From: a virus
Taxonomy: Duplodnaviria > Caudoviricetes
Virus record (IMG/VR): IMGVR_UViG_3300025751_000013
Location: 1-64,000 of that record
DNA: 64,000 nt
Direction: 5' to 3' (one strand)
In this document: in pieces, positions 2,356-45,900 of the stretch
Numbering within the stretch: the stretch's first letter is position 1
Layout: every line of letters begins with the position of its first letter
Translations under genes and position numbers: made by a program
The notes under the pieces: model-generated
Seen by the model: only the letters and a program-made list of their open reading frames with translations
What the model was told of the DNA's origin: nothing
The model's database searches: none

Positions 2356-5300
2356 GGCTCGTCTGGCCTTCTCAATATAGTTCTACCACTTACGTCATTA
2401 CCATCAGTTCGATTTTCTCGATAAAGGTTACCATAATAGTGTCCCGATGATCCTTCGCCTTCAGTAGTTTGATTAGCTCGTCTAATTAATTTTAAATTTT
2501 GTTTAAACTCGCCGCCACTAAAACTATTTGACACCCCAAGTATTTGAAATAGTCCACTAAACGGTCTTACAAGCTCAGGCATATTCATTACAAAATTTCC
2601 CATTTCTTTAGGATAATCAATCGGTGTTTTAAAATTGATAATACATAGTACTTCGTTATTTAAATATTCAACAGTGCCATCCTTAGACACATTTGGTGAT
2701 AAAAATCCTGACTTATAATTTCCTTGATCTGTAGGTAGATAGAACGGATCTCCCCAAATTTCCATTGTAGCAGATATCATTTCTATTTCACTGTTAATAA
2801 TTCTATTATGAAAAGTTTCAGCAATACGTCTAGCAGTAGTTTTTGAATAACTGCCATTTAAAAATTGATGATCATTCCTTGCTATTAGAGATATAGCTCT
2901 TGAGTCATAATCATCGTTATTTTCGGTTCCTGAATCATTTTCCGCTATCCGAGGATTGCTAACTATACCAGGTGCTATTGCTAATTTATTTGTGTTGTCA
3001 TAACCAGATCCTACGTCACTAAGAACATTACTAACAAATGCATTATTAAAATTAATATTAAAATCTATAATATCTTCATTTTTTCCTGTATATATGTAAT
3101 CATATTCTTTTACAGCAGAATCCTTTAACTTTTTTGTATTCATTGGAGATTCACCAGGTGCTAATGTCTTTGCTTCGTCTGGTAAATACGGATGTACACA
3201 ATAAACATACGTCATTCTATGCCTACCAATAGATTTTTCGATATCTGTGTCATATTCAATAAAAACCATAGGCTCAATTATAAACCATTTCTTTTTACCG
3301 TTATTTGTTTTTTGTGGGGCTTTTTGACAATAGTCTGTATCTAACATTACATCTTCAATTATTTGTGTAATTTTTGATTGCTGAGGATACGTAAAAAGGT
3401 TAGAAGTTACGGCAGTTTCTAATTCTGCAGAATTCTGAAACATAATAGACTTTTCTTTTGCGGCGTTAGGATCGTTTGGTCCAACAGACACTGCTGCCGG
3501 TGAAGCATTAGACGAATCATTAGATTTAGTAGGGTCTCCTAAAATTTTTGATCTACCTAGTTCGTTTACATTGTCTTCGTTCAGTCCCCATGCTCTTAAA
3601 GAACTATATATCGGAGGAGCATTAAAAAATTTAACATCCGATTTTACTGTTGCAACTTTTTCTGGTGCATTAGGATTGTTATCTTGTCCGCCTCTTTCTG
3701 TTTGATATTGGGTTTCTGCATCTATCATTAGTGCATTAAGGTTTGTTTTAAAACTGTTATAATTATTATACGCCTGTATTACACTATCTTTCTCTTTAGG
3801 AAATAAAATTAAATATCTATCATATCCTTTTACTTTTTTAGATTCTTCTAGTTTTTCTATATGTTCATTAATATTTCTTGTTATACTTTTATTTGATGTT
3901 TCTAATACTTCTGCAGCAGTTCTTCCTGAAGCATTTACATCAGTTTTTATAGTATTAATAGAATCTTCAAAAGCTATTTCAGAGTATGCTACTGCTTTAA
4001 CACCGTAAACGCTTCCTGATTCTGTAACGTCAAAATCTGTGTTTATTATCATAATAGGGATATATTTGTCAATTACGCCAGGAGCTTTTATTTTTTCGCC
4101 TGTCGGTCCGTATCCTTCAAATGATATTTTTAAACAAAAAGGTATTTTGTTAAAACTTGAATATTGCTTTTCTTCAGCAGTAATTTTTAATGCTTCTAAA
4201 AATTTACCCATACTATAAGGTTCAGTTACTGTAAAATTTATAGTAGTTCCTAAAGATACTCCGGTTTTTGAATTTGGGGCTATTACACTGTCAATTTCCA
4301 AATCATCTATAAAATACTCTGCGTGGCCTTTTAATTGTTCAACCTCAGCAGTAGTAAGTACTCGTCTATCTGTGCCGCCGCCTGATCTAATTATTACACT
4401 TTCAAATCCGTCAGTTTTATATTTTGATGCATTGTTATATTCTTCAGGAGATAAAACTCCTAAAGTAATTCTATAATTATATATACTATGTACTCTTAAC
4501 GGATTTTTAAGTTTATTACCTTGCATAGGTATTCCGAGATTTGCAAGATCGTCAGTTATAGACATAGGGTCATTAAATAACTCTATAAACGAATCTGCAC
4601 CTTCTATAATATCAGTAAGTCCTGTAAAAAATTTATTACTTCTATCAATTTGTAAAAGGTCTGATAATGGCTGTTGTAAATTTCCTGTTAGATTAGATAA
4701 TTGTCCTGCAAAATTTGAAATTTGACCGATTGTATTTGTAAGATTTGTTAGTTTTGCATTTTTTGAGCCAAAAACACCAGCAATATTATTAGCCGATATT
4801 AGTGCATTATTAACATTAGAAAGATTAGATATGCTGCTGCCTGGTTTTAGATTTCCGAGGCTAGAATTAATACGATTTAAATTGCCTACGATAGAACTCG
4901 AACCTCCTAGAAGATTACCTGTTACACTATTAACTTGTTTTGAAAGATCATTGTTTAAGTTTACTCCTAGTATTCTAGCAGTATCAGAAAGTGGATTTTT
5001 TATTGCTCCAATGTTTCCTGCAAAATTTCCAGATAGTCCAGTTATCGAACTTATTTTACCAGCTGTTTCTAAAACACTAAGTCCAGATAACGACGTAGAT
5101 AGTATACTATCAAGAGCAGGTATTTTTCCTGCTATACTTCCAAGCCCACCACCGGTTGCTTGACTTAAAGAATTAAGACTTGCAATTGTACCACGCAATG
5201 CAGGATTAATTGTACTAAGTGAATTAGAAATATTTGCAGCAACTTTATTTCGTTGAGGATCTAATGCTACAGTTGTTGCATCTGCAAAAGTAGTAATCGA

Positions 5301-7388: not shown

Positions 7389-8402
7389 TTGTTTAAAAAA
7401 GCGGCAGTATTTACTGACATACATTTTGGCCTAAAAAGTAACAGTAAAATGCATAATCAAGACTGTGAAGATTACATCGATTGGTATATAAAAACTGCAA
7501 AAGAGCATGGTTGTGAAACTGCTCTTTTTTGTGGTGATTGGAATCACAATCGAAACAGCCTAAACTTAACTACTATGGATGCAGGCATCCGCAGTTTAGA
7601 AAAAATCGGTGCAGCGTTTGACAACTTTTACATGTTTGCTGGTAATCACGACTTGTATTACAAAGATAAACGTGATGTAAAGTCTACTGAATTTGCAAAA
7701 CACATACCGGGTGTTACTGTTATTGACGAAATATGGGAGCAAGACGATGTTGCGTTAGTTCCTTGGTTAGTCGGTGACGAGTGGAAGAAAATGTCTAAGA
7801 TTAAAAGCAAATATTTGTTCGGACATTTTGAACTACCCAGTTTCTATATGAATGCTATGGTGCAAATGCCCGATCACGGTGAACTAAAGTCGGAACACTT
7901 TGTAAACCAAGAATATGTGTTTTCAGGACACTTTCATAAAAGACAGAAACAAGGACATATACACTATATAGGAAACGCATTTCCACACAATTATGCAGAT
8001 GCTAGTGACGATGCACGTGGCATGATGATTCTTGACAAAGAAAACAACGCCGAGCCTTTGTACATCGATTGGGAAGATTGTCCAAAATATAGAAATACAA
8101 CACTTAGTAAACTACTCGATCCTAAGAGCAGTCTTATTAAACCTAAAATGCATCTACGTGTTACACTAGATATTCCTATTAGTTTTGAAGAAGCAGGGTT
8201 CTTAAAAGAAACGTATATTAAACAATATAACTGTAGAGAGATTACACTTATTAGCCAACGTCAAACTGAAGAAATTAATACAGATTTAGACATCAGCCAA
8301 TTTGCAAGTGTTGATCAAATTGTGTCAAACGAAATTTCACAACTAGATACTGAAAACTATAGCAAGAAAACGCTATTAGATATTTACAACGGGTTACAAT
8401 GA
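7389..8402 (+). CDS. gp47: Recombination nuclease, Mre11/SbcD-like (T4 gp47)
   Basis: Metallophosphoesterase motifs DIHFG, GDW, GNHD, GHF and SGHFH; TTG start. Confidence 0.92.
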   Translation: MFKKAAVFTDIHFGLKSNSKMHNQDCEDYIDWYIKTAKEHGCETALFCGDWNHNRNSLNLTTMDAGIRSLEKIGAAFDNFYMFAGNHDLYYKDKRDVKSTEFAKHIPGVTVIDEIWEQDDVALVPWLVGDEWKKMSKIKSKYLFGHFELPSFYMNAMVQMPDHGELKSEHFVNQEYVFSGHFHKRQKQGHIHYIGNAFPHNYADASDDARGMMILDKENNAEPLYIDWEDCPKYRNTTLSKLLDPKSSLIKPKMHLRVTLDIPISFEEAGFLKETYIKQYNCREITLISQRQTEEINTDLDISQFASVDQIVSNEISQLDTENYSKKTLLDIYNGLQ

Positions 8403-10171
8403 TAAAGATTAAGGATTTAACAGTAAAAAACTTTATGAGTGTAGGTAATGTAAGTCAAGGTGTTGACTTTGATCAACAAAGCCTTACACTCGTGCTCGGC
8501 GAAAACTTAGATCAAGGAGGTGACGATTCGGGTTCCCGTAACGGTACAGGTAAAACAACAATCATTAATGCATTGTCATACGCTTTATATGGCCAGGCTC
8601 TGACCAACATTAAGAGAAACAACCTTATTAATAAAACTAATTCAAAAGGTATGCTAGTTACACTTAGTTTTGAAAAGAATAATATAAATTATAGAATTGA
8701 ACGTGGACGTTCTCCTAATATTCTTAAGTTTTATGTAGATAATACCGAACAAGTTGAAGAAGACGAGTCACAAGGCGATAGTCGCAAAACACAAGAAAGT
8801 ATACAAGAACTATTGGGCATGAGTCATGATATGTTTAAACATATTTTAGCACTTAATACATATTCTGAACCATTTTTAAGTATGCGAGCTAATGATCAAC
8901 GTGCTATTATCGAACAGTTATTAGGTATTACATTACTAAGTGAAAAAGCCGATTCGTTAAAAGACGAAATTAAGCGTACTAAAGAGGCTATTACAGAAGA
9001 AACATTTAAATTAAACGCAATCGAAAGTGCTAATCAAAAAATACAAACTACAATTGACAGTTTAGGTAAAAATCAACGTGCATGGGTTGCAAAACGCAGT
9101 TCTGACGAAGAAAAACTAGTAACTGCTATCGAAGAATTAGAAAAACTAGACATTGATGCTGAATTAGATGCACACGAAAAATTAGCAAACTGGACAGAAC
9201 ATAATAATTCTATTTTGGCTCTTAGAAAAGAATTAAGCACACTAGAACCTGCACTAATACGTGCTGACAAAAGTGTAACCAAAGCAGAAAAAGATATTGC
9301 AGAACTAGAAGATGCTACTTGTTATACTTGTGGACAAGAACTTCATGCAGACAAAAAAGCAGAGATTGCAGAACGCAAAGGAAAAGAACTAGAAGATGCT
9401 ATTGCTTATCAAACAGAAATTACTGGAAAAGTAAAAGATGTTGCACTTGCTCTTAAAGAAATTGGTGATATTAATGGTCGTCCTACTACATTCTACGAAA
9501 CTGCAAAAGAAGCATACGAACATAGAAACAATGTTAAAAACTTGCAAAATGCATTAGTAAACAAACAAGCAGAAGTTGATCCGTATGAAGTACAAATTAA
9601 CGAACTAACAAGTACTGCACTACAAGATCTTGACTGGAGTATCATAAACAATCTTACAGAGTTTAAAGAGCATCAAGAGTTTCTATTAAAATTATTAACT
9701 AACAAAGATTCGTTTATACGTAAGAAAATTATTGATCAGAATTTAGCATATCTCAACAATAGGCTAACTTATTACTTAGATGTATTAGGATTACCACATC
9801 AAGTACAATTTTTAAACGACTTAAATGTTGAAATTACACAACTAGGACAAGATCTAGACTTTGATAATTTGTCAAGAGGTGAACGCAATAGACTTATACT
9901 CGGACTATCGTTTGCATTCCGTGATGTTTGGGAAAGTTTATACCAAGGAATTAATTTATTGTTCATTGACGAACTTATCGATTCAGGAATGGATAGTGCA
10001 GGTGTTGAAAACTCAATCAGTGTACTTAAAAAAATGACTAGAGAACGCAAGAAAAACATTTTCCTCATATCTCACAAAGATGAACTAGTTGGAAGGGTAA
10101 ACAATGTATTAAAGGTTGTAAAAGAAAACGGATTTACTTCTTATGCAAACGATTTGGAGATTGTAGAATGA
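8399..10171 (+). CDS. gp46: Recombination ATPase, Rad50/SbcC-like (T4 gp46)
   Basis: Walker A NGTGKTT, coiled coil with CYTCGQ zinc hook, LSRGE signature, LFIDE Walker B and ISH. Confidence 0.93.
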   Translation: MIKIKDLTVKNFMSVGNVSQGVDFDQQSLTLVLGENLDQGGDDSGSRNGTGKTTIINALSYALYGQALTNIKRNNLINKTNSKGMLVTLSFEKNNINYRIERGRSPNILKFYVDNTEQVEEDESQGDSRKTQESIQELLGMSHDMFKHILALNTYSEPFLSMRANDQRAIIEQLLGITLLSEKADSLKDEIKRTKEAITEETFKLNAIESANQKIQTTIDSLGKNQRAWVAKRSSDEEKLVTAIEELEKLDIDAELDAHEKLANWTEHNNSILALRKELSTLEPALIRADKSVTKAEKDIAELEDATCYTCGQELHADKKAEIAERKGKELEDAIAYQTEITGKVKDVALALKEIGDINGRPTTFYETAKEAYEHRNNVKNLQNALVNKQAEVDPYEVQINELTSTALQDLDWSIINNLTEFKEHQEFLLKLLTNKDSFIRKKIIDQNLAYLNNRLTYYLDVLGLPHQVQFLNDLNVEITQLGQDLDFDNLSRGERNRLILGLSFAFRDVWESLYQGINLLFIDELIDSGMDSAGVENSISVLKKMTRERKKNIFLISHKDELVGRVNNVLKVVKENGFTSYANDLEIVE

Positions 10172-11007
10172 TTAAAATTGGTGTAAGAGGTAGTAAATTA
10201 GCACTTGCATATGCCGATATTGTTGTTAACAGAATAAAAACAAACTTTAAACCAATTGTAGATATACAAATTGTTCCTATTAAAACAGATGGCGACATTT
10301 ATGCTAAAAAAAATATAGCAGAAATAGGCGGAAAGGGTGTTTTTGTCACAAAAATCGAACAAGAGTTGTTAGCAGGCAATATTGATTTAGCAGTTCATAG
10401 TTTTAAAGATCTTCCTAAGGACTTAGACGATAGAACAGAAATTCGTGCAGTAATGCCAAGGCATGATCCGCGTGATGCTGTTATCGGAAATCTAGTCGAC
10501 GGTTGTAAAATAGGCACAAGTAGTCCTAGACGTAAATTACAACTTGCAAAAATGTTTCCTAACAGTGAAATACTTCCAATAAGAGGTAATATTGACACAA
10601 GAATACAAAAAGTTCGTGACAACGAGTACGATGCTACAATTTTAGCAATGGCAGGACTTGATACAATGAACTTAGGTCACGAAATAAACAAGATACTAGC
10701 ATTAGAAGAATTAGTACCAGCTGTAGGACAAGGAGTTATTGCTGTACAGTCATTAAAAAATCAAAATACAGTATTATTAGAGAAAATTAATCACTTAGAA
10801 ACATATCAGTGTGCAATGGCAGAACGTAACATGCTTCAAATGGTTGACGGTGATTGTGATACCGCTATTGGATCAATTACAAGTATCATTGGCGATATAA
10901 TTTCGCTCGAAGCATACAATTACGAAAATAATAAATCTGTAAAAATGCAATCTAAAGCAATTGATTATCTTAATCTAGGCGAATTAGCTGGTAATAGAAT
11001 AAAATGA
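10168..11007 (+). CDS. hemC: Porphobilinogen deaminase (hydroxymethylbilane synthase), auxiliary metabolic gene
   Basis: RGSKLAL, GGKGVF, DLAVHSFKD (catalytic Asp), GTSSPRR, RGNIDTR, ILAMAGL, PAVGQG, AER..GDC (cofactor Cys). ATGA overlaps on both sides. Confidence 0.93.
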   Translation: MIKIGVRGSKLALAYADIVVNRIKTNFKPIVDIQIVPIKTDGDIYAKKNIAEIGGKGVFVTKIEQELLAGNIDLAVHSFKDLPKDLDDRTEIRAVMPRHDPRDAVIGNLVDGCKIGTSSPRRKLQLAKMFPNSEILPIRGNIDTRIQKVRDNEYDATILAMAGLDTMNLGHEINKILALEELVPAVGQGVIAVQSLKNQNTVLLEKINHLETYQCAMAERNMLQMVDGDCDTAIGSITSIIGDIISLEAYNYENNKSVKMQSKAIDYLNLGELAGNRIK

Positions 11008-11225
11008 ACAACGAAGACGACTTACATACACAATTAGTTCAAGCATACTTAGAATATTTTAAGGCAAATGAATGGTGGGAAAGGAAAAACTCAGTTAGAG
11101 CATATTCCGCAGTTCAAAAGGCAACAAGAGAAATACGTAGAATAGCAAGAGAACGAAATACTGAAATAAAAGAGATACAAAAAGACTATAAAATCAAGTT
11201 TAAAGGCAAACAATACAAGGATTGA
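11004..11225 (+). CDS. Small basic helical hypothetical protein
   Basis: 73 aa, translationally coupled to hemC. Confidence 0.6.
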   Translation: MNNEDDLHTQLVQAYLEYFKANEWWERKNSVRAYSAVQKATREIRRIARERNTEIKEIQKDYKIKFKGKQYKD

Positions 11226-11235
11226 TAAACATTGT

Positions 11236-11670
11236 ATGAATTGGACATATAATGGCGACGAAGTTACAGAAATACCAGATGAGTATGAAGGTTTTGTTTA
11301 CATTATTACTAATTTAACAGATGATCGCAAATACATAGGCAAAAAACTAGCAAAATTTAAAACTACTAAGCCACCCTTAAAAGGCAAAAAAAATAAAAGA
11401 CGCGGATACAAAGAATCAGACTGGAAAGACTATTGGGGGTCTTCAGATAAACTATTAGCAGACGTAGAAAAATTAGGCAAAGACAAGTTCACAAGAGAAA
11501 TACTATATTTTTGTAAAAGCAGAGGCGAAATGTCTTACTTAGAGGCAAGAGAACAGTTTAGTAGGCGAGTATTAGAGACGGACGAGTATTATAACGGTAT
11601 AATAAACGTGCGTGTAGGCGGATCAAACATACTTAGAGAAAATTTAAAGGCACATCAGGACACTATTTAA
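11236..11670 (+). CDS. Small GIY-YIG endonuclease (Seg-like)
   Basis: GFVYIITNLTDDRKYIGKK, ESDWKDYWGSS, YLEAREQ, YYNGII; preceded by a late-promoter-like ATAAACA at 11225-11231. Confidence 0.85.
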   Translation: MNWTYNGDEVTEIPDEYEGFVYIITNLTDDRKYIGKKLAKFKTTKPPLKGKKNKRRGYKESDWKDYWGSSDKLLADVEKLGKDKFTREILYFCKSRGEMSYLEAREQFSRRVLETDEYYNGIINVRVGGSNILRENLKAHQDTI

Positions 11671-12018
11671 AAGCCAAAATCCAGCCGAGGTAATGCTCGT
11701 CGCCGGTGGAGTGGTAAAGTCCAACAGGCTGTATGCTACGAAAACCCCTTAGCACTAGGAACGAAGCGGGGGATAGCGCATTTTGCGTGATGTCGACGTA
11801 GGTTGGGAAAGGTCAGAGCCCAGTAGCAAAGTCAAATACCTACTTCCAATGTCTCGACTATGATACTCACATGAAGATATCTTCGAGGACGACGGGACCC
11901 TGCAAGGTTCCGTCTGACTAATTAATCTACATGAAACTATTACTTCACATTCGTTCAGTTAAAAAGAAGAAATATAGTTTGAGCGATAGCGAAAACTTAT
12001 ATCTACGAAGTAGATATA
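11671..12018 (+). ncRNA. Unidentified structured non-coding element (RNA or ssDNA) directly downstream of the GIY-YIG gene
   Basis: No ORF, more GC-rich than its flanks, several helices and a probable pseudoknot (see findings). Strand inferred from context. Confidence 0.6.
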
Positions 12019-12025
12019 CTAAATA
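12019..12025 (+). promoter_or_regulatory. Late promoter (CTAAATA), nearly leaderless
   Basis: TAAATA core 5 nt before the ATG at 12031. Confidence 0.55.
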
Positions 12026-12030
12026 TATAC

Positions 12031-12591
12031 ATGAAGCTTAATGATATATTAACAGAATCACAATTAGATGAATTTATTCCTTTAACTAAACAAGGAAGAA
12101 TGATTCGACGTGCTGAAAAAGCAGGAGCAGCTGATCTACAAGCTACTGCAAATAAATTATTACAGCAATATGCAGCACATCTTGGAACACAAGAAAAAAA
12201 AGTTAAGACATCTGACTATAATGATTTGTTTGATTTCTTAAAAAGAAAAAATGTTGATACATCTGATATAGATACAACACCTCCGATTAATGCAAAACGG
12301 TTAAAAACTATATTTTTAGCAAAATCTAAACAAGCTATGACTCCTACTCAGTCATCTGGACAAAAAACGCCTAGCAAAGAACCTAAACAACCTGCAACAA
12401 AAGTAAGTAGTGCATATATGTCAACAAAAAATGCTGCGCTAAAGTTAAATTCAAAAGAAAAACGTAGATTAATAGCACAATTACAAAAATCTGTTGATAA
12501 TACTGCAAGACCTAAAAAACAACCTACTATAGTTGATAAGAACTTTGATAAAAGTCAACGTTTAAGCCAATATGGTAAAGTTGGCAAGTGA
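12031..12591 (+). CDS. Basic protein, possible internal head protein
   Basis: 186 aa, Lys-rich; N-terminus MKLNDILTESQLDE carries L-x-E sites of the T4 prohead-protease type. Confidence 0.5.
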   Translation: MKLNDILTESQLDEFIPLTKQGRMIRRAEKAGAADLQATANKLLQQYAAHLGTQEKKVKTSDYNDLFDFLKRKNVDTSDIDTTPPINAKRLKTIFLAKSKQAMTPTQSSGQKTPSKEPKQPATKVSSAYMSTKNAALKLNSKEKRRLIAQLQKSVDNTARPKKQPTIVDKNFDKSQRLSQYGKVGK

Positions 12592-33951: not shown

Positions 33952-36900
33952 ATGTCAACAATAAGACTCAAGAGAAGTGCTGAGCCGGGTAAAATCCCAT
34001 CGATTGAACAACTAGAACTAGGCGAAGTAGCTGTCAATACACATGACGGCAAAATGTTTATGAAAAGAGACCAAAGTGGTAACTTTGCTATAAAAGAATT
34101 TGGCGCAAGAGACGCCGCAAGTAATGTGTTTTACGTAACACAAGACGGATCTAATACTAACGATGGTAAAACAATAGGAGACGCATTTGCGACTATTGAT
34201 TACGCTTTAAAAAATATTCCAGAGGGATCAACACTATATGTAAAGGCTGGACAGCACACAGTTGACAATCCAGTTAAACTTCCGGCATTTGTTGCTATTG
34301 TTGGTGACTCACTTAGAACTACATTTGTACAACCAAAAAATCCAGCAGAAGATATATTTTGGGTTAACAACGGTTGTTTCCTTAAAGATATGCGCTTTAA
34401 TAACTACATTGCACCTAGTGCAGCAGTTTCGTTCCCCCCAGATGGAAGCGCCGGATCAATTATGTGTTCACCGTATGTACAAAACTGTACATCATATACT
34501 ACAACTGGTACAGGTATGCGAGTTGACGGATCAGTTGTTACTGGCCTACGCTCAATGGTTGTTGACGCCTATACACAGTATAACCAGGGTGGTATTGGTG
34601 TGCATCACCTTAACAGAGGTAACACACAGCTTGTTTCGATCTTTACAATTTCATGTGATATTTCGATTCTTTGCGAAAGCGGCGGCTTTTGCTCACTAAC
34701 TAACTCAAACACATCATTTGGTAACTACGGACTTATTTCCGATGGTTATAGTGAAGCACTATTTGGTGCGTCTGCTGGTGCTAACATTAGTAGAAACTCG
34801 ATGTTTATGAATGACCTAGTAACGGTTCCATTTATTCAAAACGCATCTGTGTTTAGTGGCACTGGTGAAGTTTATACAATTTCAGAAGCTACTCCGATTA
34901 AAGTCGGTCAAGGTGTTGTAACTGGACCAACACTAACCCAAGAAGACAGTGATTTATTATTTGCTAGAGAAAGAATTTTAGCCAATAGAGAAGTAATTCA
35001 AAGATCAACAGTTAACTTTGTGAAAGATAATTATCAAACAGGCGGCGAATTTGACGAAGCTAAATGTGCTAGAGATAGTCAACTTATACTTGATGGTGTA
35101 GGTTTTGATGTTGCACTAGATACAAACTTTAACAGTGTTTATAATGGTATTTCGTATCAAAGAGCAAATGCTAAATTTGTTATTAATACCCAGTTTGAAG
35201 CAACAAAAGGCGCAATTGATTTCTTAAAAGCCGAAACAGCAGCTTTACTAAGTGGTACTTCATTAACTAGAGCTAATGCAGGATTTGACGATGTAAAAGG
35301 AATTCTTGACGGTGGTGTAATAAGCACTACAGTTCCAGGAGATGGTGTAGCCGACGCACTTACATTTAGTTCAACACTAGGTGTAACAGATGGTATAAAT
35401 GCTAGAACAATTTTACAAGCGAATATTGCATTCTTACAAGCAGAAGTACTTGCATTTAACGATGATTATAATGCAACGGCGATTGCTGCTGACGCTACCG
35501 GTGCAACTACAGTAGTTTATGATAGAGAAAAGTGTCAAAGAGATGTACAATACATTGTAGACGCTCTTTCATATGACGCACAGTATGGTGGCAATAGCGC
35601 AACAGTATCGGCTATGAATTCTTATATTGTTGGTACAGGAATTGATCAACTTCCAGCAGATCAAAGAGATCTTACTGCTGATTCATATGCTCACTTAGCA
35701 GATATGGTTGCAGCAATTTTAACTGATCCGTCAGTTGATCCTGGTACAAAATTAAGTGCTGGTAGTCCAGACAATTCCGCAGCGGTTACTGCTGCATCTC
35801 TTTCAGGTACAATCGAAGCACTTGTAGATACATTTGCAGGAGTATTAATTGAAGATGCAACGCCGGCTGGCACACCAACTGCAACTATTCCAGCAGTAGT
35901 AACTCCAAATGTTACAACATTGGGTGTAGCAGCAGAGTTTACAACATCGCAAACTGCAATCACAAATGCGTCTGCACAAATTGTAGATGATGTAATTGCA
36001 TTTGTTAATCAAGAATATAATTTCTCTTTCAACCAAGAAAAATGTGCAAGAGATTTACAAGAAATAATTGATGCAGCTAAAATAGATGCTGTTACAAACT
36101 CTTTGTACAATCAAACTGTAGTTGGTTTAACATACACAATGGAAAGTAGTGCTTATCTACTTAACTTACAAAAAACACAAACCGCAGCAGGTATTCAATA
36201 TGCTAGAGATTTAGTTACAGCAGACGGTAATTTTACAGATACTACAGACAGAACTGAATTTATTAATGCTGTAAACGAAGTAATTAACATATTAAATACA
36301 GGAACTCCAACATCTGACTTAACAACTGGTACTTTTGCAACTAATTTTCCAACAAGCACTGATTATTCTAATGCAGCAAGTCGTGCAGCCGCAGCTGAAG
36401 CAATAATAAACGGTATTCCTTCTTTACAGACTGATGCTCTAACTTTCCTACAGAATGGGAACGCAGGTGGTGGTTTTGATTTTTCAGCCCAAGCCGGAGA
36501 ATTTTCAAGTTTAGCTAGTGGAGGTACTGTTTCATCAGATGAACTAAAATCAGTATACCAAGATATGGTAAGAGATGGAACATTTACCAAGTGTCAAAGA
36601 GACGTGGCTTACTTAGCACAAGCAGTAGCATTTGATACAATGTATGGTGGTAATAGTGCAACTTTGCGTGTAGCAAAATCATACTTTGTAGGTGCAATTG
36701 CAGGTGACGACGATACTGAAATATCACAACTAGGTGGCGGACAAAAGAATGCAACACTTGCACTATATGCCTTCTTGGCAGTACAAATTGCGGCAGCTGT
36801 TAGCGCTGCGTCAGCAAATGCAGGGTTAGGTTCGGGCTCTGGTGCATCAAAAACAATTAATCAATTAGTTGCAGTTGTTACTGATCATATTGACGCAGAC

Positions 36901-39900
36901 GGTGTAGCATTAGCTTCTTTAGATACAGTTATACTTGCCAGCCCTGCCGACGACGATGAAATTCTAACAGTATCTGAAATTGAAGCAGTTGACGACGAAG
37001 CAATTAATGATACAATATTCTATCTACAAGATGCATTTGTACTACTAGACTTTAACGAGTCTAAGTGCTACAGAGATACAGGTATTATTATTGATGCTGT
37101 TGTAGATGACATGGTACTAGGAACAAATTATAAATCAGTAGTTTCTGGTAGAACATATTCAATGGATTCAGCGGCACTTGTTATTGCGGATCAAAAAGTA
37201 GAAACATTAGCAGCAATAAATCATGCAAGAGACGAAGCACTAGGATTTATCAATGACTTTTCGTCTAATGCTTCAAAAGTTACAGCATATAATAGAGTAC
37301 AGTCAAACTTTAATTTGATTTCTGATTTAATTAGTAAGTCAGAGTATGCATTTAAATCATATACAGTAGTAGACGCAGATTACAATCCGACGGCTGCTGG
37401 TAACTATGGTAGTACTTCTACTCCTGCAAACAGAGTTATGACATTAACAATTGGCCAGCATAGTTTTACAACATCAGATACAGTTGTAATTGCTCCTAAT
37501 AGTTTAACATTCCAGTGTTATTCAAGTGGTGATAATGAGTTCCAAACTATTACACATCCAAGAGAAGTAGCAGGTCAAAGTGCAGATCCAAATGCAGTAT
37601 CTCCAGGTTCAGATCCAGCATTTGAAACTCCAGTAGATATTGTTGCAGTTACAGACACTACAATTACAGTAGACGTTGGTGTAAATACTGGTGCTGGTAA
37701 TGTTGAGCATACATTTATTAGTGCTACAGAAAATGGTATAACATATGGTAATTCGTTTATTAATTATCCAATGCCAACAAATGTTCTACCAGAAATAAAC
37801 AGAGCGTTTACAAACATCAAGAAAAACAAAGCATATTTGATTGAAGAAGCAGTTGCTCATATCGATCAAAACTATCCGTTACTAGGATACGACAGAGGAA
37901 CATGCGAAAGAGATATCGGACTTATAATTGATGCTGTGTCATACGATGCAATGTTTGACTCAAACTTCCGTTCAATTACAGCTGGTAAAGCATATCTAAG
38001 AGGTGTTATACAAGTTATAACAGGTGATGTACTTGTAGATGAAACAACTACTACAACAGGTATTACTGGTACACTATTAACAATGGATCCAACTAAAACA
38101 GTAGTAAATCCAGGTGACGAGTTAACAGTTCTACCAACTGAGCAAAAAATTGCAACACTAGAATCATTTAGAAAACTAAGAGATTTACTTGTTCAGATTA
38201 CATTTGATAATGATACAAAGGCACGTGTAGTAGACCGTATGGATCTTATTATAGATATTGTACAAGATGGCGAATCAGTAATTCCAGCAGTAAGTATTCC
38301 TACAGCAAACATTACAACTAACGACACAGTAAACTATACAGAAAACTTTAATGCAACTGGTGTTCCAGAAACAATTACAAACATTGAAAATTCGAGAGAA
38401 TTTATTATTGCAGAAACAAAGGCATTTATTGATACTAACTTCCCAGCATTATTATCAACTGATGCTAACGGTAATATTGTCCGAGACTATAATGCAAACG
38501 ACAAGTGTGAAAGAGACGTAGGTCTTATATTAGATGCACTAAAATATGACTTAACATATGGCGGTAATATGGAAACCTTAATAGCTGGTAAAGCATACTT
38601 CTCAGATGTTGTTGCATCAGCAGATGGACCAGTTGATTTATTAGGTTCACGTTCAGTAAACATAGATATTGTTAATGCTGGTGGTATTCAACTGATTAAT
38701 CCAATTACAATTACAACATCTATTAAACATGGCTTAGTTGATGGATCACAAGTAACACTACTAGATATTAGTGGCGTTGTTGAACTAACAGGTAAAACTT
38801 TCTTTGTTAAGAAAGTAAGCGACACAGTGTTTGAATTATATGATGATGCAGCCCTAACAATCCCATTAGACGGTACTACTGGATTTACAGCATATGCTAA
38901 CTTAGGTGGTACTGTAAGAGTTAATGCAGCAGAAGTAATTGCTACTGTAGAGTCTTATAACTTCCTAGCAGATCTAATATTGACACTAGGTAATGGTGTT
39001 GCTCCAGTTAATCCACAGCAAACAATTGTTACAGCAGGAGCACTGACAACAACTAACAGTCCAAATGGTACTAGAGCAAAATCACTTGTTGACGATATTA
39101 TTACTATAATTGAAAACGATAGCTCTGTTCCAGTTGAGTTGCTTGCAGATCCAAGTTGGGTCACTGGCTACAATGCAACCGAAACATATCCGTTAGAATT
39201 AAATGGCACCGATCTTTATTCAGACTTCTTGATTATGCAAGGTGAAAAAGATGATATACAATCAGAAATTACAAGATTTATTGAAGCAAACTTTGCTTAT
39301 GATAAAAAAGTATGCCGTAGAGATATGGGATACATTATTGATGCTACATTATTTGATGCACTATACAACGGTAACAGTGCAAGTTATGATGCAGCAAGAC
39401 AATACTATACACAAGGTAAACTAGTTATTCCAGCAATCCAGCGTAAAGCAACAGGTGACGCAATGGAACTTCTTAGAAAGCGTATAGGTGATGTACTACG
39501 TTCAAACAGAGTTGTTGCAGAACAACTTCCAACATCGCCGACATTAGTGCTACAAGATACAACTACTCCAGCAGCCACAATTACTGAAATTCTAAGAATT
39601 CAGAAAAACTTTGATGTACTTGAAAGTCAAATACGTAGAGATTATTTCATCAATGACTTTATTGATGTAATTGATCCTGACTTTAATCTTCAAACAGAAA
39701 CAGCAAACAAAATTAGAAATAAGATACTTGCTGAAAAAGAAAACCTACAGGTTAAAACAATTAAATTTATCGATACAACATTTAGAGAATTCCGTTTTGA
39801 TAGAGAAGTTTGCTCAAGAGACGTAGGACTTATTTTAGATGCAGTTGCAATGGATGTTGCACTAGGTACTAACTATAATTCAATTATTGCAGGTCTATCA

Positions 39901-42900
39901 TATCAAAGAGGTAGTTTGTCAATTGGTACTGTTAAAGATGAGCAGAAGCCACAAACAATAGCAGCTATTGAATTCCTAAAAACAGAAACACTAGCAATTT
40001 CAGGACTGTCAGCAACAGGTATTGCAAGAGCAACAGCAGCATTTGATGAAATTATAGACATCTTTACAAATGGTGAAACAAGTACTAGAACAGCAGCAGA
40101 TGCAATTACATATCCAGTTCCGACAGGTGTTGATACTAACAAACAAAACTCACATGACTTGTTACGTGCTAACAGAGACTTTATATCTGAAGAGATTATT
40201 GAATGGATTGAAGATAACTTTACAAACTTTGAATATGATGAGTTTAAGTGTGAAAGAGACACAAGAATTATACTAGATGCAATTGCACTAGACGCAGCTC
40301 TAAATACAAACTATAACACAATTACAGTAGCACTTGCATACAAGCGTGTAAATGCACAACTAGTAATTACAGATCAGTTGATACAAACTGTAGCAGCTAT
40401 GGATTATCTACGCAAATTAGTAGACGAAAACAAAGATCTAAGTGTTATTGGTCGTGCAAGAATGACACGTTTAATCGATGATATTATAGAAATTGTACAA
40501 TCAGATACAACTGACTTAGATGTATTTGACAGTACAAACTTTGATAGTACACTACTTAACGCATACGAAAACATTGAAATGAATGCACCTAAAAATGCAA
40601 CACAAGATGAAATCGATGCCAAAGAGCAGTTAAAACTTAACAAAGAATTCTTAGCAAGTGAAGTATTAGCGTTTATCAACTTAAACAATCCGACACTAGA
40701 CTATGTTGAAGCTAAGTGTAAAAGAGACGTTAAATTCTTACTTGATGCAGCAGCATTTGACTTACTATACGGTGGTAACTCAGCAACTGTACAAGCGGCT
40801 AATAGCTACTTTGTAGGAACAGCTAACCAGTTAGGTGATGACGAAGTACAAGCAACAATCGATGCTTATAACCATTTAAAAACTGTTATTGAACCAGTTG
40901 TACTTGCAACTAGTGAAGATAACAATCCAGTATATGTACCAACAGCTGGTAATAGTATGCGTCAAATTATCGAAAGTGATCCAGGAACAGCTACTGAAGT
41001 TGCAGCTATTCAAGCATCGCTTGATATTGTTATTGCTAGAATACAAGGCACACCGACACCAACACTAGTTAAGCCAAGTTTAACAGGTGCTGATGCTAAC
41101 TTAATTAAAGACTTTAATGAAATATCAGAGACTGCTTCAGTAGAAGCACAGAAAGTTGTAGATTATGTAAATGATCAATTTGCAAACTTTACATATGATA
41201 TTGACAAGTGTGCAAGAGATGTTAAACTAGTTGTACTAGGCGCAGCAATTGACTTAGAGTATTCAACTAACTATAACAGTGTAACTAATGGTCTTTCATA
41301 CCTAAGAGGAAATGCTAAGAAAGTTTCAAACGCATTCCAAAAAGCAATTACACTAGCCGCACTTGATAAACTAAAAACACTAGCAGCTACAACTATCGGA
41401 ACAGGTACAGGTTATGCAGCAGCAGTAACAGCAGTTAATGCAAGTATTGATACAGTAAAAACAATATTTGATGAAGGTTTAGTTGGCATAACACCAACAA
41501 ACGCTGTATATGATCCAACAACAGGTGTTATGGATCTTACAATTGGCGAGCATACATTCATACAAGGTGATACAATTACACTAGAGCCAGGCAGCTTGAA
41601 ATTTACTTGTGCAAGTGACGGAAACAACGTTGTACAAGCATACCCAAGAACAAGTGATCCGGCATTTAATTATACACTAAAAATTATTGACACTGGTAAA
41701 CTAACAATAAGTGTAAACGTTGGAGTATCATCAGAAACATCAGCGCACACATTTATTACAGCAGATGAAAAAGCAATTAAAACTGGTGCTCTTCCAAATG
41801 CAGTTCCGGCGCTAACATTTGCAGGTATAGATGCAACAAATGACTCGGCTTATGCAGCAAAAGCAATACTTGCTAACAAAGCGTTTATTGCAGCAGAGAT
41901 GTCAGCATATGTTGTAAATGATCCTAACTTTATACTAGTTGGTAACTACGATGAAACAAAATGTCGTAGAGATTCAAATAATATATTAGATGCAGTTGCA
42001 TTAGATTTGCGTACAGGTTCAAACTATAACTCACTATATGCAGGTATTGCATACACAAGAGCAAATAGTGATTATGTAATTAGTGCCCAAAAATCAGCAA
42101 CAATAGCAGCTATTGAATTCTTAAGAGATACTGTAAAAGCACTATCAAATGTTGATGCAGCAGCAGACACAAGAATTGATTCACTATTTGCAATTATTAT
42201 CGCAGCAATTAACAGTGGCGCTACAAGCACGTTGCTTCCAGGAGGCGCTACAGGCGTTCCACTATTAAGTCTTCCAACTCCGAATACTCCAATTGCAGGC
42301 GGCGCAGATGCAGCAGCACGTTTAACATATAACAGAGATGCGTTAGCAGAAGAAGTACTAGAACACATTAACCAAAATGCAAATGCTATATACCTATCTA
42401 TGGATCAAGCTAAATGTTCAAGAGATGTAAAATACATTGTTGAAGGACTAGCACATGATGCAGTATATGGTGGTAACATTGGTGCTAAACTAAATGGCGA
42501 AGCATACTTTGTAGGTAACGATACTGAACAGTTAGGCATTGGTCAAAGATCTGCAACAGTAGCAGCATATCAACATCTTGCACAAGTAATAGAGCAGTTA
42601 GTCGGCGCAGGTGTAGCTGATGCTGGATTCACTAGCGTAATATTAGTAGCTAACCCAACTCAAGCGTGGAGTGATAATTCAGTACCTAATGCAGCAACAA
42701 TAGCAACTTACTTAGCAGACAGTTCAACTGGGTTAATTGAAACTTGCATAGTTGCACCTATTAATGCAAACAAATTGGCTAACTTCTACACACCAACAGC
42801 GGCATCATATGTTCCAACTACAGGTGTACTAACACTTACTGTAACTGGTAATCCGTTCTCAAATGGTGATACAATTAGACTAGCAGAACGTAGCATTGGA

Positions 42901-45900
42901 TTTAAATGTCAAAGTGATGGATTTAGAAAAGTATTCTACTATCCAAGAACAACTGATCCAGCACTTAACTCAGACTTAACAATAAGTAACGTAGTAGGTG
43001 ATAGTTTTGACGTCCAGATTGGTGTATCATCAGAAGAAAGTACACATCAGTTCGTAGGACCAGCTACAAATGCAATCATTGATAGCACATTACCAGATGA
43101 TGTACAACCAGCAAGTGCTCAGTATGTAACAACTGTATCGTTCACAGATGCAGCAACAGCAATTGTTGCAGGATCAGGAACAGCAGTAGATTCAACAATA
43201 TCTTATATCAATTCAGATCTAAGCTTTAACCAAACTAAGTGTGAAAGAGACACAGGTTACATTGTTGAAGCATTAACACATGATACATTGTACGGCGGCA
43301 ATTATGCAACTACACAAGCAGCTCTAGCTTATAGAGTTGGTGTCGCAGGACAGTTAGGTAGTAATTCACCTGAAACTACAGCAACAGTAGCAGCATATGG
43401 TACACGTTTACCAGCAGTAGTACAAGCAATTGTTCAAGGCGATGCACTAACACCGTCAACAGGCAATTCAGTGACTCAAGTTGCAAATGCAAATACAGTA
43501 AGCCCGTGGACTAATGCTAATGCAACTATTGCAGCAGATATTCAAAATATTGTAGATGTTATTGAGCATGGCGGTGATCCACTATCAGTTGATGCTTCGA
43601 TGATAGCAGAAACTAACATAACTGAAGGTACAATATATGATGCAGAATCAGGTGTACTAACACTAACACTTAGCGGCACATCTACAGGACTAGTAGCAGG
43701 TACAAGCACAATTAGACTAGCACGTAATAGTTTAACATTTACTTGTGCAAGTGATTCACATGCTACTTCATTAACATATCCAGACAAAGATAGTTTTGGT
43801 TATGATAGAGAATTAAGAGTATTAAGTGTTGCAGAAGCAGGTAACACAACTATTACTGTTAACATAGGTAATGCACGTAAACTAGGTGCTACTTCAGCAG
43901 ATAGAATACACAGATTTGTAAGTGCAGCAGCTAATGCAGTTGTATTACCAATTTCACCAACAAGACCAACTATAGCAAACACATTTGCTACATCACTTGT
44001 AACAAAAGCCGATGCAGCAAGCGATAACTTTGGTGATTTGATAAATGCATATCTACTATCAGACTTCCCAACAAGCACATACGATAGAACACGTTGTAAG
44101 CGTGATGTAGGATTTATTGTAGACGCTCTATCATACGATGTACTATATGGCGGTAACAGCGCAATGCGTGAAGTTGCAAGAAGCTACTTTAGCTTTGGTC
44201 TAAACTTACTAGGTGATGATTCTAAAGAAACAGATGCAACAATATTTGCATATGAGCACCTAAGTAGTATTATTGGAGAGATTGTACAAGGTGTACAAGT
44301 AGGAAAAGCTACAGGTAACTTATTAGTACAAACATATGATACAGCAAGTACACTAGCAGAAGCAGCAGTTGCTCAAACACTACTAAAACTAGTTACAGAT
44401 ACAATTAGAGATAGAAGTGTTAATAAGCTAGATGAGCAAGAGCTACCAGATATTACTTGGGCAGCGTCAGAATTCCAAAATGACTTTGCAAGCATTACTT
44501 TTAACAAGTCAGTAGCACAAGCTGATACACTACAGTTTATTGACGATAGATACACAACATTTAGTTACGATCAGTTTAAGTGTTCAAGAGACGTTGGATT
44601 GATCTTAGATGCTGTTTTAGCTGATATGGTAATGGGTGGTAACTACCAGTCATTACTAGCAGGAAGCAGTTATTACAGAGCAAGTGCGTTTATTGTAAAA
44701 GGCGATCAGCTACCAGAAACAATTGAATCAATCAAATTCTTGAAGAAAGAAGTTGAGAAAATCTTAACAGATCCATTGTTTACAGCAACAGTTGTTCCAG
44801 GTACATATCCTAACCCAACTATAAGAGCTATTACTCCGTTAGAAGCTATTGAAAATGCTAAAACACTAACTGAAGTATTTGGTGATACGCAAGAGTATGC
44901 AGATCTTATTGCAAGATTTAATGATGTTCTTAGAGTTATGGAAAATGGACTAACTAACGCAGCTGAAGATCAAATACAATTTGTTGCTCCAACTGGAATT
45001 ACAGGAACAAGAACTAATGCTAAAGACATATTACTTGCAAACAAAGAATTCTTTGTTGAAGAGTCAGTGGCGTTTATCAAAGAAAACTTCCCACTAATTG
45101 GATATGACAGACAGACTTGTGAAAGAGATGTAGGACTAGTTCTTGATGCTCTAGGGTTTGACTTAATGTTTGGTTCAAATATGCGTAGTATTACAGCAGG
45201 TAGATCTTACTTTAGAGAAGGCGCTGCTGTTGTAAGTGCAGATCAAAAGAAAGCAACACTAGCAGCATTTGAATTCTTAAAAGTTAAAGCAGCAGAAGTT
45301 GTAAGCAGTGCAATACTATCAAATGGTTCTTACGTAGCACCAGGCGGAAATAAAGAATTTATCATAACAGTAGGTGCTGACTCATATGAACAAAAACCAA
45401 CTGGTGTATTCTACTTAGATGGTATAGAGCAGCCGATAATAGAACTAGATCCAGGTGCAGTATATACCTTTAATCAAGATGATCCAACTAACGCTTACTT
45501 TGGCGATAATCGTCATCCTCTAGTGTTTAGCACAACAAGAGATGGTGATAATGCAGGTGGTACAACTTATGACACTGGTATTGCTTACTACTTAGACGGT
45601 GTATCAGTTGACGAAGCACAGTACGAAAGAGGATTTGCTAGAGCAACACTACGTAGAGTAGAACTTGATCTTAGAGGCAAGTATACAACAGAACTATACT
45701 ATGCAGGCGGCGCCCGCAAAGGTATGGGTAACTTAATCTACGTAAAAGCAAAAACAACAGGTGAACCGATTAAAAAGTCTATACAAGATAATATGAATGT
45801 TATTCTTGCACTTCTTGATAGAGGTAATGTTACTTGGCAGCCATATGATGCAGAATATAAAACAGTAGGCACAGATACAAGTGGTAATCTAAAACTTTAC

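Follow-up and report, generated by a model that had tools for sequence, protein, structure and literature searches.

The window analyzed here (the whole stretch of DNA, 64,000 nucleotides) comprises the first 64 kb of the linear 109.9-kb IMG/VR virus record IMGVR_UViG_3300025751_000013, for which CheckV estimated a completeness of 30%. It carries a gene for a 144-aa GIY-YIG nuclease and, directly behind it, a non-coding block that is the subject of this study (Table 1). As stated in the preliminary description, which a model made from the sequence of the window, the block is GC-rich, structured, and free of open reading frames (ORFs). The GC content is 50-54% across 11650-11900, rising from the stop codon of the nuclease gene, compared to ~26-40% in the flanks and ~32% around the site, where the surroundings are AT-rich. 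No ORF of at least 40 aa starting with ATG, GTG, or TTG was found in 11671-12030, and the longest stop-to-stop frame (67 aa) lies on the - strand. The core of the block extends over ~11655-11945 on the + strand, with more hairpins up to ~12017. We propose, with slightly less than even confidence, that it represents a new phage RNA family, large and pseudoknotted, whose members function as RNA.

Table 1. Genes and structural features at the locus (positions in the window)
Feature	Positions	Strand	Remarks
gp46	8399-10171	+	directly after gp47
hemC-like gene	10168-11007	+	porphobilinogen deaminase homologue; PF01379, E 6.2e-66; C-terminal domain matched more weakly
73-aa ORF (orf73)	between the hemC-like and GIY-YIG genes	+	
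GIY-YIG nuclease gene, 144 aa	11236-11670	+	matches to PF19835 and phrog_447
5' domain closed by helix P-I	11658-11722	+	GGAC 11658-11661, in the last ORF codons, pairs with GTCC 11719-11722
Long-range helix alpha	11727-11833	+	outer part GGCT 11727-11730/AGTC 11830-11833; inner part TGCTAC 11734-11739/GTAGCA 11823-11828
Hairpin H1 (CCCC..GC/GC..GGGG)	11745-11772	+	12-nt loop ACTAGGAACGAA; A-rich junction before it
Hairpin H2 (GCGCA/TGCGT)	11776-11788	+	
Invariant 34-nt block GATGTCGACGTAGGTTGGGAAAGGTCAGAGCCCA	11789-11822	+	near-invariant in 121 unique cores
Beta 3' strand ACCTAC	11838-11843	+	predicted pseudoknot with 11798-11803, crossing alpha
Hairpin H3 (GTCTCGA/TCGAGGAC)	11851-11890	+	loop of ACTC and repeat 1, ACATGAA 11869-11875
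Hairpin H4 (GACGGGACC/GGTTCCGTC)	11891-11914	+	3' strand invariant
Gamma 3' strand TGACT	11915-11919	+	predicted to pair with loop 11811-11815; followed by ATCT and repeat 2, ACATGAA 11929-11935
3' tail	11977-12017	+	tandem G-A hairpin GTTTGAGCGATAGCGAAAAC 11977-11996; stem-loop ATATCTAC-GAA-GTAGATAT 11999-12017
186-aa ORF	12031-12591	+	after the non-coding block; - strand genes next

Relatives of the block were collected from 80 loci kept from a protein scan of IMG/VR, and the type of the window (type A) was retrieved by blastn and iterated nhmmer. The 80 loci comprised 63 with type A, 7 with a second type (type B), and 10 ending less than 190 nt past the ORF; one of the two types was thus present in 70 of the 70 loci with enough downstream sequence. 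Exact matches to a 31-mer of the core were found in more than 119 IMG/VR loci, more than 118 metagenome loci, and two contigs of one metagenome-assembled genome (MAG), the IMG/VR and metagenome sets sharing some contigs. A blastn search with the block against 50,697 GenBank phage records gave no match.

The structure model was obtained by reading the sequences. It was evaluated on a MAFFT alignment (A1) of 52 diverse sequences of type A, to which it had not been fitted. For the whole model, 91.0% of the 2745 cells pair, compared to 33.5-41.8% when the partners are slid by 1-3 columns, and two-sided changes occur in 26 of the 56 pairs and in 277 cells; none of 500 shuffles reached any of the five measures. 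Helix alpha encloses H1, H2, and the invariant block. Compensatory changes were observed for all six pairs of its inner part (TGCTAC/GTAGCA; 98.9% of the cells paired) and for three of the four outer pairs. Its cognate strands bind at -10.96 kcal/mol vs -6.51 kcal/mol for non-cognate strands, with the cognate strand better in 73 of 73 distinct strand pairs. Compensatory changes also support six of the seven pairs of H1 (e.g., CG:28 and UA:22), whose loop is invariant at eight positions, all four pairs of H2, and all five pairs of the 5' hairpin h0. GCGCA/TGCGT is the base of H2, which ranges in length from 8-nt GNRA-capped hairpins to insertions of tens of nucleotides. TGCTAC/GTAGCA, CCCC/GGGG, and GCGCA/TGCGT, all three proposed in the preliminary description, were thereby substantiated.

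The 34-nt block holds the 5' strand of beta (GTAGGT, 11798-11803), a TGGG/CCCA hairpin (11804-11807/11819-11822), and, in the loop of the latter, the 5' strand of gamma (GGTCA, 11811-11815). As read from the sequences, the block is predicted to make two further long-range pairings, both invariant, which give a doubly knotted fold: beta crosses alpha, and gamma joins the GGTCA loop to TGACY after H4. Beta can pair in 100% of the 52 sequences (one pair being GC:47 and GU:5), as can gamma (one pair being GU:40 and GC:12), which is also possible in type B (GGTCA/TGACT). Beta, gamma, and TGGG/CCCA are invariant and 99.5-100% pairable, i.e., compatible with pairing. For the crossing helix GTAGGT/ACCTAC and TGGG/CCCA suggested earlier, the pairing potential was retained but covariation was not found. 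Taken together, five helices of the preliminary description have support, the crossing one among them.

The remaining helices of the preliminary description fared differently. GACGGGA/TTCCGTC, corresponding to H4, is 98.9% paired, with one-sided changes in five pairs and a compensatory change in one, mostly between G-C and G-U and between A-U and G-U. H3 can always form and shows some C-G, U-A, and A-U replacement among the rows of A1, but it is 56-70% paired in the MAFFT columns and its strands are not partner-specific (35/64). CAGCC/GGCTG does not hold for the whole family, being present only in the subclass of the window and in type B, and its GGCT can instead pair with AGTC in the outer part of alpha. 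U-G and G-U pairs are frequent throughout the model (UG:31, UG:34, and GU:40) and fit the + strand only; thus, the RNA is read from this strand.

Downstream of beta, the RNA carries two loosely similar units of ~30 nt, containing ACTC and ACATGAA (11865-11875) and ATCT and ACATGAA (11925-11935), respectively. The two 7-mer copies are identical in 95 of the 97 parsed type A sequences (three of 100 were not parsed, and three type A sequences were also mis-parsed in the spacing script) and in 15 of the 19 type B sequences. Their spacing is 54-68 nt in the 97 type A and 56-58 nt in the 19 type B sequences. Thirteen forms of the 7-mer were found (ACATGAA, ACATAAT, GTATGAA, ACGTGAA, ACATGAT, ACATAAA, GCATAAA, ACATGAG, GCATGAA, GAATAAT, GAATGAA, GAATGAT, and AGATGAT). 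On a nuclease tree of 108 rows, with identical copies in 103 rows, 26 changes are required for each copy and 27 for the pair, compared to an average of 44 and a minimum of 41 for shuffled labels (200 shuffles). The count of 26 is inflated by recombination and tree error; from the 13 forms, a minimum of 12 joint changes follows. Local pairing of repeat 1 with the H3 loop, on its 5' side, takes different registers in different subclasses. Of 75 ATGAA sequences, only 39 had the reverse complement of the last 5 nt of the 7-mer in the 3' tail, no more specifically than the other classes, and the translation start region of the nuclease gene is complementary to the 7-mers in part only, as judged by eye.

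If two 7-bp direct repeats served as recombination core sites, they would have to change in parallel, and a homing-type nuclease is encoded next to the block; hence, the block could be a DNA-level element (a homing target, origin iterons, or recombination core sites) in which the repeats are protein or recombination sites. We regard this as very improbable, since compensatory changes, G-U pairs on one strand, and hairpins that vary in length yet still pair are signatures of RNA. No recombinase was noticed adjacent to the block, the adjacent ORFs gave no such match in Pfam, and no repeat-less or deleted variant was found among 116 sequences. The replication or packaging signal considered in the preliminary description is unlikely, since the compensatory changes and the strand-specific G-U pairs indicate RNA.

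The 3' tail, which may be part of the same RNA molecule, is kept behind both types A and B. Its first hairpin has a tetraloop and shows a GC/GC to GT/AC replacement, GAGCG-NNN-GCGAA covarying to GAGTG..ACGAA; the second stem-loop is variable. Both are found at the corresponding place in L045, L050, L064, and L080. In relatives, a TATAAATA box, which we take to resemble a T4 late promoter, lies after the 3' tail and before the next gene.

In related phages, the site behind the nuclease gene is taken by type B, which has a different, highly conserved core; a 29-mer gave 34 exact matches. Type B was observed, for example, in L045/L215, L050/L205, and L204-L237 (e.g., L204:1008-1500). The two types are interchangeable and have in common the 5' domain of the window's kind, an ACGAAGC motif, a hairpin with a GGTCA loop, a short AATCTC...AAGAT hairpin, a GC-rich hairpin, TGACT, and two repeat-bearing units, and they differ in the central sequence. 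The nuclease tree requires 4 changes of the A/B label and 14 of the RNA subclass; RNA modules have thus been exchanged between lineages with the locus retained.

Known RNA families were searched for with Rfam 15, as the preliminary description had proposed, and none was matched. There were 0 matches in the window at the gathering score; in the E-value mode, 11400-12300 gave two chance-level matches only (E 4.4 and 9.7). Five related loci gave none. The chance-level matches (CRISPR-DR40, SorX, and ARRPOF) were dismissed. ARAGORN detected 0 tRNA or tmRNA genes in the window; under relaxed settings, 25 sequences gave five low-score matches on the opposite strand, and none with introns allowed. 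RNase P RNA was rejected, as Rfam gave no match and the 5' end pairs internally (P-I) and not with the 3' end; GGGAAAGGTCAGAGCC bears some likeness to RNase P CR-I, but its AAAG is missing in type B. Resemblances to the cobalamin riboswitch (GGGAAGG and AATAGGGAA), to RNase P CR-I/CR-V, and to an HDV-like topology matched no model and involve motifs not kept in type B. Full-text searches of the literature, including one within PMC10690425, gave no description of the RNA; the supplements of that paper, with ~10,000 candidate viral RNAs, could contain it. The family is ~290-450 nt long, probably multi-pseudoknotted, and uncatalogued, and it is new by the absence of a match to a described family and not by a shown mechanism.

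The fold resembles that of group I introns, which the preliminary description had mentioned, in the pseudoknot of crossing helices, the two-hairpin domain, the A-rich junction, the variable second hairpin, and the adjacent gene of a homing-type nuclease. The P3/P7-like topology is present, in that alpha and beta cross with H1 and H2 between them, with beta invariant and pairing-compatible. The differences lie in the lack of a model match, P8, a conserved terminal G, P1, and exons, and in the position of the RNA outside any gene. The group I model RF00028 gave nothing at the site in a search of the whole record, with two matches of 5.6-6.6 bits ~95 kb away; in a control search, it gave a signal in 8 of 14 named genomes, above the cut-off in two, and the model misses some group I subgroups. 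At the place of P8, between the 3' strand of alpha and ACCTAC, there is an A-rich linker only (15-24 nt from CCCA to ACCTAC in 93 sequences). The sole candidate for the terminal G lies in the ATG of repeat 2 and is replaced by A in 14 of the 97 sequences of type A and in 10 of the 19 of type B. Inspection of the 5' end by eye revealed no P1-like helix with a U-G pair, no ORF extends across the block, the flanking genes vary, and no structured part lies upstream of the nuclease gene. Mapping gamma as P7 restores the strand order (P3-P7-P3'-hairpins-P7'), with the conserved terminal G and exons still absent. A group I intron was thus rejected.

A self-processing ribozyme in a wider sense would either have a knotted core, similar to that of group I or HDV, by which the transcript is cleaved, or cut at the 7-mers and release a 54-68-nt hairpin RNA. 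The order of the strands (alpha 5', beta 5', hairpin, alpha 3', and beta 3'), the A-rich junction, the two-hairpin domain, the GNRA-capped variable hairpins, the invariant core, and the identical 7-mers at constrained spacing are what such an RNA might show. However, no Rfam ribozyme was matched at E up to 10, and the missing P8 hairpin, the unconserved terminal G, and the absent exon context count against it as well. We consider it quite unlikely.

The 144-aa product matches Pfam PF19835 (SegE_GIY-YIG) at E 3.9e-35, residues 3-123 covering profile positions 1-123 of 123, and phrog_447 at E 3.9e-38; putative GIY, YIG, Arg, Glu, and Asn motifs were recognized by eye. As noted in the preliminary description, it lacks a separate DNA-binding domain: the nuclease domain fills the protein, and the C-terminal DNA-binding domain of the Seg type is absent according to Pfam. 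No sequence relative was found among solved structures. There are 575 relatives of the protein in IMG/VR, and homologues occur in 784 phage records, mostly of cyanophages, where they are annotated as 'NAD synthetase'. The nuclease diverges about as much as its neighbor gp46 (75-80%), so the gene appears to be vertically inherited. It was not classified as a homing endonuclease of the Seg/I-TevI type, as the protein consists of the nuclease domain only and the gene is present in all syntenic loci and not patchy. In most relatives, a TAGGCAnnGGTAAGTAnnnn-ATG motif is conserved between the small upstream ORF and the nuclease gene, ~5-25 nt before the start; it is absent in the window.

Both covariation and linkage to the nuclease, on which the preliminary description had staked its proposal, were found across homologues. 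The RNA is preceded by the nuclease gene, in the same orientation, in 76 of the 76 type A loci of IMG/VR with at least 447 nt of upstream sequence (four without a match have less than 230 nt, and 39 more loci had 300-nt flanks only), in 31 of 31 type B loci (three without a match have at most ~100 nt), and in 52 of the 52 metagenome loci with at least 1 kb upstream. As these represent a single syntenic position in one clade, the linkage amounts to a conserved order of genes.

Large structured RNAs beside nuclease ORFs are known from HEARO/omega-RNA and the TnpB reRNA, which were first seen as 'ORF-associated RNA'; HEARO later became the guide RNA of IscB, and the RNA of TnpB overlaps the 3' end of the TnpB ORF. 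The element described here is similar to them in that a large conserved structured RNA adjoins, and partly overlaps, a small nuclease ORF. The RNA might thus be a ribonucleoprotein partner that recruits, guides, activates, or inhibits a protein without a DNA-binding domain. The strict adjacency and co-orientation, the start of the RNA within the 3' end of the ORF (the layout of TnpB), the restriction of the protein to the nuclease domain, and the variable sequence after repeat 2 would agree with this. In contrast to HEARO and TnpB, which are multi-copy mobile elements with a variable guide and RuvC/HNH nucleases, all cases here represent one conserved locus in one clade, without many mobile copies, and the nuclease is of the GIY-YIG type. 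The variable guide-like segment expected in the preliminary description was not found in the alignment of relatives, and no guide-like variable single strand was identified.

Homologues of the protein also occur without the RNA. The nuclease of Methylophilales phage Melnitz is 72.6% identical, with a late-promoter-like box directly after the gene and the RNA absent, and the homologues in the 784 phage records likewise lack it; nhmmer searches of the Melnitz and cyanophage homologue loci with the type A and type B profiles gave no match at E up to 10. More distant homologues (56-65% identity), unlike that of Melnitz, do have the RNA, and the RNA types were exchanged relative to the protein tree. 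From the one fixed locus and the RNA-less nuclease of 73% identity, the RNA-guided GIY-YIG system put forward in the preliminary description is unlikely, and we regard a ribonucleoprotein partnership of any kind as improbable. In cyanophage Syn19, a tRNA-Arg gene lies 200 nt beyond the nuclease homologue. The homologue itself (3501-3908 of the extracted locus) is annotated as a 78-nt 'NAD synthetase' coding sequence, although the tblastn match extends over ~370 nt (3501-3869); thus, the gene looks mis-called and misnamed.

The 5' domain is closed by helix P-I, which covaries in all subclasses. The variants are GGAC/GTCC, GAAC/GTTC, and GGAT/ATCC in class 1 and the analogous TGAGC/GCTCA, CGGAC/GTCCG, and GGGAC/GTCCC in type B. 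In class 2, P-I is CCAACA/TGTTGG, and a proximal GGTTGG copy that changes in parallel could pair with the same CCAACA. At least three architectures of the 5' domain were observed, with the core constant. P-I begins within the ORF in some loci and beyond the stop codon in others. Six unique loci have an extra ORF that separates the nuclease gene from the RNA; in these, the P-I strand is non-coding. Among the extra ORFs (e.g., L018:3456-3700, L027:3435-3700, L140, L113, and L123), those of L113 and L123 have a Cys-x2-Cys ... WxPKG pattern, and those of L027 and L140 have a GKxxGKxLS(D/E)L..YL.W pattern, which we take to be that of a phage domain of unknown function.

A coding role of the block was rejected because no frame is conserved. 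Small ORFs from the ATG of either repeat vary in frame and length among the relatives, as judged by eye, and read-through of the in-frame TAA would add 39 aa in the window, an extension that is not kept in class 2.

Six RNA libraries are among the 20 sequence sets containing the stretch, and four runs were compared as assembled contigs. Contigs span from the ORF into the RNA in X16 record 14 (11333-11842), X20 record 25 (11141-11817), and X15 records 5, 6, and 8 (0 differences). The four runs reported no joints, and their uncovered stretches and contig ends are not interpretable. Co-transcription of the nuclease ORF and the RNA is possible. No terminator-like site was found on the + strand.

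In a cis-acting role, the RNA would be a 3' element of the nuclease or early transcript, i.e., a conformational switch or 3' barrier that governs the stability of the mRNA, translation of the nuclease, or read-through from the early + strand unit in the direction of the convergent late genes. P-I would be opened by ribosomes that reach the end of the GIY-YIG ORF, and the fold would then switch. Such a role fits with P-I drawing on the last codons or on sequence surrounding the stop codon, with CCAACA of class 2 pairing to either the proximal or the distal GTTGG, both co-varying, and with the position of the RNA at the end of the + strand block, before the late-promoter-like box and the - strand genes; the RNA-library contigs connect the ORF and the RNA. 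However, the size, the invariant 34-nt core, and the double knot far exceed those of known 3' stabilizers and terminators. Furthermore, the shifting position of P-I relative to the stop codon, the extra ORF in six loci, and the lack of a terminator-like site do not favor this role, and we judge it somewhat unlikely.

Several points weigh against our proposal of a new RNA family acting at the RNA level. Since both pseudoknots, TGGG/CCCA, and most of the 3' module are invariant, their pairing is unproven by covariation. The single-sequence fold is no more stable than dinucleotide shuffles (z of 0.21 for the + strand and 0.40 for the - strand), so the evidence for structure is comparative and not thermodynamic. 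No complementary partner shared by the 7-mers was found, in that no 7-of-7 match, with G-U allowed, occurs at a consistent place. The evidence from the RNA libraries consists of assembled contigs that may include DNA and indicates presence at most. Finally, the invariable upstream nuclease gene and the reach of P-I into the ORF leave a functional tie to the nuclease or its mRNA possible. The RNA is nevertheless taken to be independent of the nuclease on the grounds of Melnitz without the RNA, the six loci with an extra ORF in between, and the four A/B changes on the tree.

If the proposal holds, the RNA would have no promoter of its own and would be made as a 3' extension of an early or middle transcript ending with the nuclease gene. 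It would work as RNA, as a ribozyme-sized catalytic or protein-scaffolding molecule and not as a guide or an intron. No textbook explanation was found for the parallel 7-mers. Together with the two GTTGG segments facing CCAACA, they are segments that occur twice and change in parallel, from which we infer that the RNA may adopt two mutually exclusive pairing states; alternatively, the duplicated segments may be two equivalent docking or processing sites. The nuclease gene would be a neighbor and not an obligate partner, as for Seg-type genes beside stable-RNA genes. T4 segB sits in a tRNA cluster, and here, too, a small GIY-YIG gene directly precedes the gene of a conserved RNA, again in a T4-like phage; the differences are that the RNA is not a tRNA and that the protein lacks the Seg DNA-binding domain and diverges like gp46.

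Two further systems were compared. The T4 gene 60 bypass uses matched take-off and landing sites, and the 7-mers resemble them in being short, identical, separated by ~50-60 nt that include a strong hairpin, and located close to a homing-nuclease gene in a T4-like phage. However, no reading frame passes through the region and the spacing of 54-68 nt is not fixed; hence, the analogy is formal only. GOLLD and ROOL are large ornate phage-associated RNAs. The RNA described here is similarly a big, conserved, many-helix phage RNA in a region carrying tRNA genes in related phages, but it has no Rfam match, is smaller (~300-450 nt), has a different architecture, and belongs to a marine T4-like clade. 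Literature on such large ornate RNAs includes 10.1101/2024.12.08.627333.

The T4-like gene content of the window includes a gp47-type phosphoesterase, a gp46/SbcC-type ATPase, gp20 portal, gp21 protease, gp23 capsid protein, and a T4 baseplate protein. Pfam searches with 33 more ORFs of the window gave matches to T4-type structural proteins and gp47 only and no further RNA-related protein. In the clade, the gene order is gp47, gp46, (hemC), small ORF, GIY-YIG, RNA, variable genes, and baseplate genes on the opposite strand. Of the 90 type A loci that extend 500 nt or more upstream, 88 have gp46 or orf73 there; among the metagenome loci, gp46 was found upstream in 40 of 41. The hemC gene is located between gp46 and the small ORF in some relatives only and is therefore an accessory metabolic gene. 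At 33952-48825 (+), the window contains one uninterrupted open frame of ~4,958 codons.

The phages carrying the RNA are widespread marine T4-like myoviruses, probably with jumbo genomes. Two contigs of one 'Candidatus Neomarinimicrobiota' MAG, PBPT01000016.1 (335 kb) and PBPT01000082.1 (153 kb), both carry type A and are probably phage contigs binned into the MAG. Their sizes, together with the 30% completeness of the 110-kb record, suggest genomes of ~300 kb or larger.

Large RNAs of such structural conservation are rare, and time and again they have proved to act as ribozymes or to supply the RNA half of an important machine. It is conceivable, though unlikely, that the RNA is a new natural ribozyme class or a two-state RNA machine acting on the two 7-mer sites (e.g., excising or re-joining the 54-68-nt hairpin), or the first RNA partner of a GIY-YIG nuclease. 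If either were true, the few large functional RNAs known would be joined by a new kind, from phages that are very abundant in the ocean. Even if it were merely a 3' stabilizer, it would still be by far the most elaborate known in phages. The RNA is a well-defined and easily synthesized (~300 nt) target for cleavage, probing, and structure work, and for phage biology it adds a new conserved feature to an uncultured T4-like clade whose members are probably jumbo phages.

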